Shown here piece by piece: positions 121-53,212 of a stretch of 64,000 bases of DNA. The DNA is from Scenedesmus sp. PABB004 (lineage: Eukaryota): contig JABVCE010000029.1 of NCBI GenBank assembly GCA_014905635.1, positions 248,001 through 312,000 on the forward strand. The letters run 5' to 3'. A model generated the notes under the pieces. That model made no database searches. It had not been told where the DNA came from and saw only the letters and a list, made by a program, of their open reading frames with translations. Positions within the stretch are counted from its first letter, which is position 1, and each line of letters begins with the position of its first letter. A program made the position numbers and the translations under genes.

Positions 121-2730
121 GCTGTGGGTGACGGCGGAGCCGCACCCCCAGTTCCCCATCGGCCTGCTGCAGATGGGCATCAAGATCACCAACGAGGCCC
201 CCGTGGGCGTCAAGGCGGGGCTGCGCGCGAGCTACCAGTGGGTCAACCAGGACATGCTCGACGCGGTCGGGCGGTGAGCGCACGCGCTGCGCTGCACTGC
301 GCTGCACTGCGCGTGCTGCGCGCAGGGGGAGCCTCGGCCGGTGCGCGCCGCCGCCTGGCGCCCCTCGGAGTCGCGCCACAACGCCCGCGCCGCGTGCGCC
401 GCCGCGCCGCGCGCGCAGTCAGGAGTGGCGGCAGCTGCTGTTTGTGATGTGCTTCCTGCACAGCGTCGTGCAGGAGCGGCGCAAGTTTGGGCCGATCGGG
501 TGGAACGTGCCGTACGAGTTCAACGCGAGCGACCTCAGCGCGTGCACGCAGTTCCTGCAGGTCCGCCTGCGCGCCTGCTCCTTTCGCACCCGCCGCGCCT
601 CCCTGCCCAGCGGCCCAACCTCCCGCCCTGACTTGCCCCGCCCCCGCGCAGAACCACCTGCTGGAGATGGACGCCAAGCGCGCGCCCGGGCCGACGTGGG
701 AGACGGTGCGGTACATGGTCGGCGCGATCCAGTACGGCGGCCGCATCACCAACGACCACGACCAGCTGCTCATGAACACATACGCGGAGCGCTTCTTCCA
801 CTCGGGCCTCATGACGGTGCGGCACGCGCCGCGGGCTGCTGCGGGCGCTGAGGTGGCGGGCGGGCGGCGAGACGCGAAGGCGGGGCGAGCGGGCGCCAGG
901 GCCGACGTACAACGCGCGCGCCGCCGCCGCCGCAGCCGGGCGCGGAGCTTCACCGCGACGAGCGCAGCGGCTTCAGCTACCGCGTGCCCGACTCGACCGA
1001 CGTCGACGCGTTCCGCGCGGCCGTGGAGGCGCTGCCGGCGCAGGAGAGCCCAGAGATCTTCGGCCTGCACCCCAACGCCGACCTCACCTTCCGCACGCTC
1101 CAGGCGCGCCGCGCCGCGCCGCCGCGCCGCGCGCGGGCCCGCCGCCGCTGAGCTCCGCCGCTGAGCCCCGCCGCCGAGCCCACCCCTGAGCCCCGCCCCG
1201 TCCCCGCTGCCTGCGCGCGCCAGGTGGCCGAGGGCATGGCCACGATCCTGGACACCATGCCCAAGGGCGGCGGCGGCGGCGGCGGGCTGAGCCGCGAGGA
1301 GGCGGTCGACCGCATCGCCGAGGACCTGCTCTCGAAGGCGCGCGGCAGTGCCTGCAGCGGCGGCAGCGCGCCACCGCGCACGCTCAGCCGCACGCCGCCG
1401 CCGCCGCTGTGTGTGCACACGCCGCAGACGCCGGCGCTGTTTGACAAGGAGGAGGTCCGCGAGCGCCTGCGCCGCCTGCCGGGCGGGCCGACGCAGCCGC
1501 TGACGGTGCACCTGCGCCAGGAGCTCGACCGGCTCAACACCGTGGTCGCGCTCGCGTCGTCCACGCTGACCAGCCTGCGCCTCGCGATCGCGGGCACCGT
1601 CGCGCTGAGCGGGCCGCTGATTGAGGCGCTGGACGCACTGTTCATGGCGCGCGTGCCCCTCGCCTGGCTCAAGACCAGCTGGGAGGTGCGACGCGCGCGG
1701 GGACGGGCGGCGGGACGGGCGGTACGCGTGGTGGCTGGCGGCAGGGGGTGTGCGGCGGGCCTGGGCCGCCCACCGCCGCCGCGCCGCGCGTGTCGCTGCC
1801 CTGCCGCCGCAGGCTGCGACGCTGGGCAGCTGGTTCAGCGGGCTGCTGCAGCGCCACGACCAGCTCGCGCGCTGGCTGACCCTGGGCCGGCCGCGGTCCT
1901 ACTGGCTGACGGGCTTCTTCAACCCGCAGGCGCGCACGCTGGCAGGCCGCAGCACGCGCCGCCACGCCCCGCCCTGCCCCGCCGCGCGCGGCGCTGCGGG
2001 CAGCTCAGCCGCTCCCGCCGCCGCTCCCGCCGCTCCACCACCGCAGGGCTTCCTGACGGCGATGAAGCAGGAGGTCAACCGCAAGCACGCGGCCGACAAG
2101 TGGGCGCTCGACGACGTGGTCATGACGAGCGAGGTCACGCACCCGCCAAAGGTGCGCCGCACCGCCGCCTGCAGCCGCGCACCGGCGTCCGCCGCCCATT
2201 CTCGCACCCGCCCACCATCACAACCCGCCACACGCACGCACGCGCACGCGCACCCACCCAGGAGTTTGAGGGCCTCAAGGACACCCCCGCGGAGGGCGTG
2301 TACATCCACGGCCTCTTCCTCGACGGCGCGGCGTGGTCGGGGCGCGACAACAAGCTCGTCGAGCCGGAGCCAAAGAAGCTCTTCGCGCCCCTGCCCGTGC
2401 TCTACGTCACCGGCGTGCAGGCCAAGGCGCGCGCCCCGCGCGCACGCGGCGGCGGCGCGCGGGCGGGCGGGGGCAGGGCGGCGCAGCGCGGGGGCACAGC
2501 GAGGGCGCGAGCCTGATGCCCGCCGCCCGCTGCCCTGCTGCCTGCTGCGCTGCACGACCGCTGCCCTGTGCACACAGGACAAGAAGCGGGGCGGCGTGTA
2601 CGAAGCGCCCTGCTACCGCGTCAAGGCGCGGCGGGGGCACAACTACATCGCGAGCTTCGCGCTGCGCACCGAGGACGAGCGCGCCAAGTGGGTGCTGCGC
2701 GGAGCGGCGCTGCTCTGCTCCATTGACTGA
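121..2730 (+). CDS. ODA2: Axonemal dynein heavy chain, C-terminal part (AAA6 to C-terminus), outer-arm gamma/DNAH5-DNAH8 type; 5'-partial, 10 exons in window
   Basis: Exons 121-273, 419-560, 652-816, 936-1103, 1224-1337, 1428-1685, 1813-1929, 2047-2151, 2262-2426, 2578-2730 splice to [108 protein letters not shown]. Subtype is assigned from recalled similarity to DNAH5-type chains. Confidence 0.93.
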
Positions 2731-2807
2731 GCGGCGCGCGGCGGCGGGGCGGCGAATTGGCGGGCCCTGTTGCAACGCCTCGCCTCGCGCAGCTCGCCAT
2801 GCCGCGT

Positions 2808-51339: not shown

Positions 51340-51754
51340 GCCGGCGCGCCGCGCCGCCGCCAACCGCTGCTGCTGCTGCGCCCGCGCCGGCGCCGCCGGC
51401 TCGCCGCCTCGCCGCCGGCCGCGCTGCCTGCGCCTCCGCGGCCGGCCAACGGCTGGAGGTGCTCACAGAGCCGCGCGGCCGCGATCTGCGGCCTCTCGCC
51501 TGGCGGGCGAAGAGGTTGGCTGGGCGCGGCAGCGACCTGCGTGGGCTGCGGTGCGATGCCTGGGGCACGCGTACGACCGGTCTGGCGCGGCGTGCGGCGG
51601 GTGGTGGGCCACACCAACCCGAGCAGCGCGGGAGGGGCGGTTTTGGCATCAACTCGTCGTTTGGGAGCCCGCTGCGGCCTCGATCGCGTCCCGGCGCGCG
51701 CCCGCCCCACACCAGGCGCTGGCTCACGACCCGTGCCACCCTCACGACGCCGCC

Positions 51755-53212
51755 ATGCCGGCGCTGGCGCGGCTGGCGGGGCGCCTGGGGCGCCTGAGCG
51801 CCTGCAGCCTGCGTCCCGCGCCCTGGGGCGCGCAACCCGGCCCCCGCTCGCCCTGGCAGGCGGTTCACCGAGGGCCCCAGCCGCCGGCGCGAGCTCTGGC
51901 GCTCAATGCCCTGCTCGCGGGCGCCGCGCCGCAGCCAGGCGGGCGCAGCGGCAGCGGCGGCGAGCCCGGCAGGCGCGGCAGCAGCGGCAGCAGCGGCAGC
52001 AGCAGCAGCAGCAGCAGCAGCAGCAGGCGCGGCAGCCGAGTGCCGCTGCAGCCCTGTGGCGCTGCCAGCCAACCGGGGAGCAGCAGCGGCGGCGGCTCGG
52101 TGAGCGCCGCGCCGCGCCGCGTGCCGCGCCGCTGCGCTGCGCCGCGCCGCGCCGCGCCGCGCAATCGCCCGCGGCTCGCGCGCGCAGGTGCTGACGGTGC
52201 CCACGATGCTCACGCTCGCGCGCGTCGCGGCCATCCCGGCGCTCATCGCGGCGTGGTTCTGGCCGAGCCCCGCCGGCGGCGCGGTCGTGACTGGCATCTT
52301 CATTGCAGCCAGCCTCACCGACTGGTTGGATGGCTACCTGGCACGCAAGCTGGTGCGTGCGCCAGGCGGGCGGGCGGCGGGAGGAGGCAGGGAGGCGGCA
52401 GGCGGCGACAGGCGGCGGCAGGCGGCGGCAGGCAGCGGCAGGCGGCGGCAGGCGGCGGCAGGGAGCACGCGGCGGCGGCGGCGGCCCGCTCACGCGGGCG
52501 TGCACTGCCGCCGCCGCCGCTGCGCCGCCAGAACGCGTCGTCCGCGTTTGGTGCGTTCCTGGACCCCGTGGCCGACAAGCTCATGGTCGCGACAGTGCTG
52601 GTGCTGCTCAGCACGCAGCCGCTTGCGGCGGGGCCGCTCGCAGGCAACGCGTGGGCGCTGCCCGTCGCGACGCTCGGTGCGCCACGCTCTGCGCCGCGCC
52701 GCCGCTGGCGGCGGCTCTCGCGCTCGGCCGCGCCGCGCTGGGCGACGCCCGGCGCGCGCGGCCACGGGGGCCGCGGCTCACGCGCTGCCGCCGCCGCCGG
52801 CGCGCGTCGGTCGGCGCAGTGATCATCGGCCGCGAGATCACCATGTCCGCGCTGCGCGAGTGGGCGGCCACGCTCGGCGGCGAGGCCAAGGCGGCGGTGG
52901 CGGTCAACGCGTGGGGCAAGTGGAAGACCGCGACGCAGGCACGGCGCGGCGCGGCGGCACGCGTGCGCCGCGCACGCCGGCGCGGCGGCGGCCCGCCCGC
53001 GTGCCCGCTCGCCCGCACCCGACGCACTCGCGCCGCCCCGCGCCGCGCAGATGGCGGCGCTGACCTGCCTGCTCTACACGCGCGACGGCGCGGTCGGGCA
53101 GCTCGGCGCCGCGGCGGCGGCCGCGGGCCCGCCGCTGCTGTGCGTCGCGGCGTGGCTGACCGCGCACTCGCTCGCCCTCTACCTCGCCGCGCTCTGGCGC
53201 TTCATGAAGTGA
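51755..53212 (+). CDS. PGP1: CDP-diacylglycerol:glycerol-3-phosphate phosphatidyltransferase (PGP synthase), organellar, 5 exons
   Basis: VLTVPTMLTLARV, TDWLDGYLARK, FGAFLDPVADKLMV, IIGREITMSALREW, AVAVN.WGKWKTATQM. Confidence 0.92.

Follow-up and report, generated by a model that had tools for sequence, protein, structure and literature searches.

Introns that begin with GC instead of GT make up a predicted 16–22% (17–23 of 104) of those in the 64-kb stretch of DNA analysed here (positions 248,001 to 312,000 of contig JABVCE010000029.1; hereafter the window). This is close to the ~19 of ~103 introns counted by hand in an earlier note on the sequence. Alignment to homologous proteins, translation of the splice junctions and a gene parse supported a GC donor at 17 of the 19 sites listed in that note (11 by homology or conserved motif, 6 by the parse only). 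As for the other two, the donor at 20093 is tied with a GT alternative and that at 5435 is disfavoured. All 19 positions read AG/GC in the sequence (a slash marks the exon-intron boundary throughout), and the letters downstream are as described: GCGCG at 17 sites, GCGAG at 39651 and GCACG at 52939. We consider it very probable that these are ordinary U2-dependent GC-AG introns, which would have become frequent through GC pressure and would be tolerated where an AG at the exon end compensates for the altered donor.

Because stop codons are too rare to delimit exons in 80% GC DNA, we used a purpose-written protein-to-DNA spliced aligner (BLOSUM62, all intron phases, selectable donor set). The aligner requires an AG acceptor, and the acceptor was fixed as AG in every model. 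GT-only and GT+GC modes were compared with an any-donor mode in which all 16 donor dinucleotides are permitted. For the dynein heavy-chain gene, alignment to the closest homologue, P0003, scored 1362 with GT donors only, 1561 with GT and GC donors and 1564 with any donor, and the any-donor run picked GC donors at exactly 1104, 1338, 1930 and 2427. Summed over 12 dynein homologues, the corresponding scores were 10325, 12973 and 13114; GC alone thus regained 2648 of the 2789 gained by full donor freedom. The four dynein introns are listed below, fractions of 12 being alignment votes.

1104..1223, plus strand: GC-AG intron, phase 0, 120 nt, ctccag/GCGCGC; P0003, 5/12 plus 3/12 at a 9-nt shift.
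1338..1427, plus strand: GC-AG intron, phase 0, 90 nt; P0003, 9/12 in any-donor mode.
1930..2046, plus strand: GC-AG intron, phase 0, 117 nt; P0003, 11/12 in any-donor mode.
2427..2577, plus strand: GC-AG intron, phase 0, 151 nt, not a multiple of three; P0003 in any-donor mode.

With the 12 homologues, the junction at 2427 fell under the three-vote cut in any-donor mode and received 4/12 in GT+GC mode; barring GC donors around it cost the gene parse described below 12.4 log units.

Two protein kinases contain the following GC-AG introns, two of which interrupt the catalytic loop.

27476..27593, plus strand: GC-AG intron in HRDVK/AGNIL of an OSR1/Fray-like kinase, 118 nt; 12/12 in any-donor mode.
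28175..28300, plus strand: GC-AG intron in KHFSK/GMRNLV of the same OSR1/Fray-like kinase, 126 nt; 12/12 in any-donor mode.
40465..40633, plus strand: GC-AG intron in HRDIK/GDNIL of the second kinase, 169 nt; 12/12 in GT+GC mode.

Spliced at 27476, the junction translates as HRDVK/AGNILI; the alternative GT donor at 27470 would remove the V-K. At 40465, the any-donor mode shifted the junction by one codon, to a CG at 40468, in 12/12 alignments. Only 40465 yields the invariant HRDxKxxN spacing (HRDIK/GDNILL), and the GT-only solution at 40474 inserts three residues (ARA) in the catalytic loop. The two genes are OSR1/Fray-like paralogues (26438-31073 and 39553-41746, plus strand) with common intron positions and equal exons of 159 and 96 nt, and both have a GC donor directly after HRD[VI]K. 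Either this donor would predate the duplication, or it arose twice in the same AAG/ context. A further intron of the first kinase, 28662-28802, has a CTCACTCG/CTCACTCA-type short tandem repeat at its 3' end (28758-28802, plus strand) that reaches the acceptor.

Homology also placed GC donors in a serine acetyltransferase gene, and a sulfatase gene contains one in a conserved motif. A homologue search with the serine acetyltransferase open reading frame (ORF) returned only two matches, P0001 and P0002, and one good homologue was used.

21322..21444, plus strand: GC-AG intron, serine acetyltransferase, phase 2, 123 nt; P0001 and P0002 in any-donor mode.
22089..22187, plus strand: GC-AG intron, serine acetyltransferase, phase 0, 99 nt; P0001 in any-donor mode.
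22308..22543, plus strand: GC-AG intron, serine acetyltransferase, phase 0, 236 nt, not a multiple of three; P0001 in any-donor mode.
14471..14618, minus strand: GC-AG intron in ILTDDQ/GWDDIG of the sulfatase, 148 nt; junction translation, Pfam and parse.

Retention of 21322..21444 would introduce two in-frame stops. The same gene has GT introns by homology at 21683 and 21886. A homologue search with the sulfatase exon found no match; the exon downstream of the 14618 junction matches the Pfam Sulfatase profile from profile position 12 onwards, the alternative GT donor at 14699 loses the ILTDDQ exon end, and a ban on GC donors here cost the parse 19.3. The junction translations thus bear out the earlier note's statement that GC introns split invariant motifs, for HRDxK (27476, 40465) and for TDDQ/GWDD (14618). 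Overall, for 10 of the 19 claimed donors any-donor alignment placed the junction at the claimed GC or within one codon of it. Junctions with at least 8/12 votes in this mode comprised 16 GT, 5 GC and 1 CG; the sole CG is the one-codon shift of 40465, and one of the five GC junctions (56022) is an alignment artefact.

For the whole window we used a two-strand Viterbi gene parse with 3-periodic Markov coding scores, an acceptor matrix, an opposite-strand shadow state and separate donor matrices for GT and GC. Its seeds were the 28 introns supported by homology, and it then went through four rounds of self-training. The parse yielded 18 genes with 104 introns, 81 with GT and 23 with GC donors. 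Seventeen of the 23 GC donors are claimed sites; the six extra ones are low-scoring, low-confidence calls, including a false one at 21668. Seven claimed sites were recovered without having been seeds, five of them on the minus strand, which held no seeds. When all GC donors within 400 nt of a claimed site were banned, the parse lost 4.9–55 log units per site. In a comparison with decoy dinucleotides GC was best, scoring 14244 vs 13988 for GT only, a gain of 256 log units. All 17 supported introns end at an AG acceptor that preserves the reading frame, and 9 of them, against the ten claimed earlier, have lengths that are not a multiple of three. The six introns placed by the parse only, each a probable GC-AG intron, are as follows.

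39651..39746, plus strand: probable GC-AG intron, N-terminal part of the second kinase, ggacag/GCGAGA, phase 2, 96 nt.
52939..53050, plus strand: probable GC-AG intron, CDP-alcohol phosphatidyltransferase gene, acgcag/GCACGG, 112 nt.
12235..12360, minus strand: probable GC-AG intron, sulfatase gene, phase 2, 126 nt; GC ban costs 11.8.
35630..35733, minus strand: probable GC-AG intron, gene without an assigned family, 104 nt, not a multiple of three.
35923..36050, minus strand: probable GC-AG intron, same gene as 35733, 128 nt, not a multiple of three.
49774..49859, minus strand: probable GC-AG intron, WD40-like gene, 86 nt, not a multiple of three; GC ban costs 12.6.

A joint GC ban around 35733 and 36050 cost the parse 55. 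The weakest site is 39651, where the ban costs 4.9 and the intron, a multiple of three without an in-frame stop, may be read through. Next weakest is 52939, where an alternative GT donor at 52963 adds eight codons at a cost of 5.7. PgsA-type enzymes carry a GKxKTxxQ motif, and the earlier note named KTATQ/M as an invariant motif split by a GC intron; since Pfam and PDB searches with the two CDP-alcohol phosphatidyltransferase exons flanking the 52939 junction returned nothing useful, KTATQ/M is at most a candidate motif. In a Pfam search (E<=1) with 13 short exons beside unverified junctions, only the sulfatase start matched. The two sites that did not gain support are these.

20093..20314, plus strand: ambiguous, GC donor at 20093 or GT donor at 20123 with the same acceptor; forcing 20093 changes the parse by -0.4; outside homologue coverage.
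5435..5673, plus strand: claimed GC donor, unsupported; forcing it costs the parse 28.9; no Pfam family in the region.

The parse placed the segment 4300-5980, which contains 5435, in no gene. It predicted a single 3.9-kb exon, without a Pfam family, at 5983-9906 (plus strand).

The base composition of the window is extreme for eukaryotic nuclear DNA. GC content is 75–82% in each 4-kb bin and ~79% overall. At the three codon positions it is 0.77, 0.57 and 0.95, introns are 85–87% GC with interiors of 7.5% T and 45% C, and the dinucleotide GC is ~4x commoner than GT in window DNA. The window has 389 stop-to-stop ORFs of 100 residues or more, and a Pfam scan of all of them (145 + 145 + 99) found eukaryotic gene pieces scattered across several frames: a dynein heavy-chain C-terminus, sulfatase, serine acetyltransferase, acylphosphatase and a strictosidine-synthase-like protein, together with three protein kinases, RPAP1, CDP-alcohol phosphatidyltransferase and TFIIA. 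For one kinase, the closest named homologues come from chlorophycean green algae (Scenedesmus, Tetradesmus, Chlamydomonas). Judged from these split eukaryotic genes and chlorophycean kinase homologues, the window comes from the nuclear genome of a green alga of very high GC content and is rich in introns. Rfam gave no match in the 64-kb window, which thus holds no small nuclear RNA gene by this search. Within 20001-40000, the part compared, short low-depth contigs of a freshwater metagenome DNA run, X1 (share 0.06), matched parts of the window lying within 20283-35348. The pieces listed are 179-464 nt long with 1 to 6 letter differences each; all else consisted of very short matches and of joints 20-25 letters long. 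On these matches, the X1 sample is taken to contain the same species or one very close to it. None of the pieces spans a claimed donor, hence they say nothing on T or C at +2.

The donors of the two classes differ in few positions. GT donors (n=81) have the consensus CAG/GTGCGC, with G at +3 in 96%, C at +4 in 77% and G at +5 in 96%. GC donors (n=17) read AG/GCGCGC, a normal donor with T>C at +2 and the same letters from +3 to +6. The earlier note had taken the C at +4 for a special U1 mismatch of GC donors; being present in 77% of GT donors as well, it is the norm of this lineage. The note's other observation, that GC donors always follow an exonic AG, held for 17/17 GC donors vs 34/81 GT donors (Fisher p = 3.8e-6). 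Among the introns placed by homology only, a set that involves no matrix, the figures were 10/10 vs 8/18 (p = 0.0039), and when GC donors were scored with the GT weight matrix, which has no built-in AG rule, 18/21 still followed AG. Fourteen of the 17 supported GC donors are in phase 0, and their exons end in the preferred codons AAG, CAG or GAG. None of the 104 predicted introns had the ATCC at +3 to +6 of a U12-type donor (/RTATCCTT).

The canonical U1 5' end is ACUUACCUG, its canonical target is CAG/GTAAGT, and the U6 box reads ACAGAGA. Over the nine positions of CAG/GTAAGT, GT donors without AG matched at 4.64 positions on average, GT donors with AG at 5.71 and GC donors with AG at 4.71. 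A GC donor without AG would drop to ~3.7 matches, and 1/81 GT donors is as low as 3. GC was used by 20 of the 54 donors in AG context and by 3 of the 50 outside it, all three being low-confidence calls of the parse. With intron interiors of 7.5% T and 45% C, drift alone would leave a C at the majority of +2 positions, which argues that T is still the favoured letter at +2 in both contexts and a necessary one where AG is missing. The 5' splice-site consensus is given elsewhere as MAG/GURAGU (PMC3167603). The heptamer AGGTGCG is nearly reserved for donors in the window (36 occurrences, 25 of them predicted donors). Of AGGCGCG, the two strands together have 79 copies, 15 of them predicted donors; as it is mostly not a donor, the evidence for GC donors lies in the alignments and not in the motif. 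We infer that AGGCGCG alone carries too little information and that other signals must help to select GC donors.

These observations are consistent with the following course. GC-biased pressure would drive T to C throughout the DNA and would have mutated the lineage's normal donor, G/GTGCGC, to G/GCGCGC at +2. The C at +2 would be tolerated only after an exon-end AG, which may add two pairs with the U1 5' end and/or contacts of U5 with the exon end and so offset the lost +2 pair. Total donor strength would then remain equal to that of the weakest GT donors that still function, and a mutation-selection balance would leave about one third of AG-context donors, and essentially no non-AG donors, as GC. 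An explanation along these lines, GC pressure with compensation by exonic AG, had been among those suggested in the earlier note, and it agrees with the AG at 17/17 GC donors, the U1 match of 4.71 vs 4.64 and the GT orthologues found in DNA of 55–58% GC. The AG rule and the equal U1 match fit a simple pairing threshold with unchanged machinery.

The orthologues were found by scanning metagenome contigs with one dynein exon, which gave 17 loci; intron positions were compared on the P0003 scale. Over the C-terminal 300 residues, the 11 loci compared are 64–77% identical to the dynein of the window. At position 383/384 the window has GC, and L014 (58% GC) and L015 (55% GC) have GT. At 421/422 and 546/547 the window has GC and L014 GT. 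Position 581/582 is GT in both the window and L014, and 202/203 is GT in the window and L015 and GC in L010 and L011. Expressed by window introns, the orthologues of 1338 and 1930 are GT in L014 and GC in L010-L012, and that of 1104 is GT in L014 and L015. The comparison with lower-GC relatives proposed in the earlier note thus came out, for this one gene, as three dynein positions with GC in the window but GT in contigs of 55–58% GC. The metagenome or WGS contigs L010 (700-4310), L011 (700-4290) and L012 (1-1650), at 74% GC, have a GC donor at almost every dynein intron that aligned well (4/4 in L012 and 10/11 in L011 in any-donor mode), and their lineage seems, from these alignments, to use GC as its default donor. 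Ten other contigs (L001-L009 and L016), of 57–66% GC, encode the same dynein C-terminus without introns in this part, in contrast to the 9-11 dynein introns of the window, L010-L011 and L014.

Several points weigh against compensated, otherwise ordinary GC-AG introns as the explanation. All counts come from one 64-kb window, and the junctions are known here from DNA and protein comparison alone. Six of the 17 supported sites (39651, 52939, 12360, 35733, 36050 and 49859) come from the parse only; the parse was seeded with 10 claimed sites, and its GC-donor matrix learned the AG rule from the seeds. In the decoy comparison, CG in place of GC still gained 155 of the 256 log units, and CG, CA and CC gained 122–155; the decoys sit one codon from real GC donors, so this control is weakly discriminating. 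Each method also gave at least one false GC call. In the alignments this was 56022 (8/12 in any-donor mode), which adds 22 low-complexity codons of negative coding score and was rejected in favour of a GT donor at 55956 that yields LAKNAGMRPSASELV. In the parse it was 21668, rejected on the homology result of GT at 21683. Six of the eight supported GC introns with lengths divisible by three lack an in-frame stop, and partial retention of such introns in vivo is possible. Finally, GC donors of L010-L012 also follow exons ending in CGG and CCG (cgccgg/GCGCGC, tcgccg/GCGCGC), so the AG rule is not universal and the U1 argument is unproven. A branch-site motif, CT[GCA]A[CGT], was too weak for validating introns: it occurred in the last 60 nt of 26/81 GT and 9/17 GC introns, and in 26/104 exon controls and 7/74 intron 5' parts.

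Two further readings were considered. In the first, which we regard as unlikely, a green-algal lineage of ~79% GC would have come halfway in replacing GT donors by GC, with T at +2 lost wherever an exonic AG holds U1 pairing over a sharp threshold; the replacement would be almost complete in L010-L012 (74% GC), which use GC after non-AG exon ends too, and the machinery would perhaps have co-evolved. If it had, for example through U1 pairing with C at +2, the series would show the stepwise rewriting of a core splice signal by base composition. In the second, the spliceosome itself would be changed, for example by C at +2 becoming acceptable to the U1 5' end or to U6/Prp8 contacts, and the GC donors would be a product of the new machinery. 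The predicted fraction of 16–22% is indeed far over the ~1% of animals and plants, and the use of GC at nearly all well-aligned dynein introns of L010-L012, also after non-AG ends, indicates that wholesale shifts do occur in some lineages. We nevertheless think this second reading improbable. The strict need for exonic AG in the window is what unchanged machinery predicts, and so is a U1 match no different from the one seen in weak GT donors, whereas U1 pairing better with C at +2 should free GC donors from AG; altered U1, U5 or U6, considered in the earlier note, would therefore not be needed to explain the GC donors. Elsewhere, the normal major spliceosome processes GC-AG introns (PMC3167603).

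It is also very improbable that the GC donors are modelling artefacts and that real transcripts use nearby GT donors or read through segments divisible by three. Such a view can draw on the excess of GC over GT, which gives any aligner more freedom, on the false calls at 56022 and 21668, on the six stop-free introns and on the cheap alternatives at 39651 and 52939. However, GT alternatives at 27470, 40474 and 14699 harm the invariant motifs HRDVK, HRDxKxxN and ILTDDQ, respectively. Nine supported GC introns have lengths not divisible by three, well-voted any-donor junctions are almost only GT or GC, and other organisms carry introns at the same positions. That sequencing or assembly errors changed T to C has next to no probability, as they would need to strike +2 of 17 introns, only after AG, and independent assemblies (L010-L012) have GC at orthologous intron positions.

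Under the preferred reading, that of ordinary U2-dependent introns with compensation by exonic AG, the window would serve as a natural titration of donor strength, supporting a pairing threshold under unchanged machinery, and would extend the link between GC content and GC-AG frequency to an apparent chlorophyte. Gene prediction in this alga must permit GC donors; otherwise ~1/6 of the introns would be mis-modelled, and models limited to GT would be hit in catalytic motifs (HRDxK, sulfatase DDQG).

Such frequencies have precedents: values of 14–17% (Aureococcus, Pelagomonas) and ~56–65% (Emiliania huxleyi) are already published. In E. huxleyi, GC donors account for 56–65% of curated, expressed sequence tag and RNA-seq sets, some were verified by reverse transcription PCR, the authors ascribe them to the 65% GC genome, and gene predictors that assume GT mispredict the junctions (PMC4028052). 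Among pelagophytes, GC-AG introns amount to 14–17% in Aureococcus anophagefferens and ~14% in Pelagomonas calceolata, ascribed to GC content, against 0.32% in low-GC Aureoumbra and 0.3–2% in plants and animals (bioRxiv 10.1101/2024.10.30.620910); a value of ~40% for Aureococcus is quoted elsewhere (PMC3167603). For mammals and in general, GC-AG introns are put at ~1% and assigned to the major spliceosome, T>C at +2 weakening U1 pairing and the remaining donor being stronger (PMC3167603). A literature search returned no report of high GC-AG frequency in green algae, a weak negative as most subscription journals lay outside the search, and the accessible text of PMC6310983, PMC10639083 and PMC2846911 offers no numbers on green algae rich in GC-AG introns. 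The window is thus apparently a new example, in what appears to be a green alga, of a known phenomenon with a known explanation, and does not point to a new mechanism.

The window resembles E. huxleyi in a predicted GC-donor fraction far above 1%, in its AG acceptors and in high GC content. It differs in that E. huxleyi is a haptophyte in which GC is the majority donor, whereas in this window GC is a minority donor, at a predicted 16–22%, confined to AG exon ends; moreover, the E. huxleyi donors are in part verified on RNA and the introns of the window are known here from DNA. The pelagophytes Aureococcus and Pelagomonas are GC-rich algae with a GC-AG fraction similar to that predicted for the window, and the 0.32% of low-GC Aureoumbra parallels the GT orthologues in contigs of 55–58% GC. 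They belong to another supergroup, and their figures are genome-wide predictions, as against one window here. The exonic AG requirement found in the window is not stated for pelagophytes in the accessible text of the preprint (bioRxiv 10.1101/2024.10.30.620910). Closest in logic are the general U2-type GC-AG introns, whose compensatory consensus matches the AG at 17/17 GC donors. There compensation includes positions +3 to +6 and exonic enhancers, whereas the two donor classes of the window differ, besides +2, only at -2/-1. The strict AG rule and the equal U1 match of GC donors and of GT donors without AG are what is to be expected.

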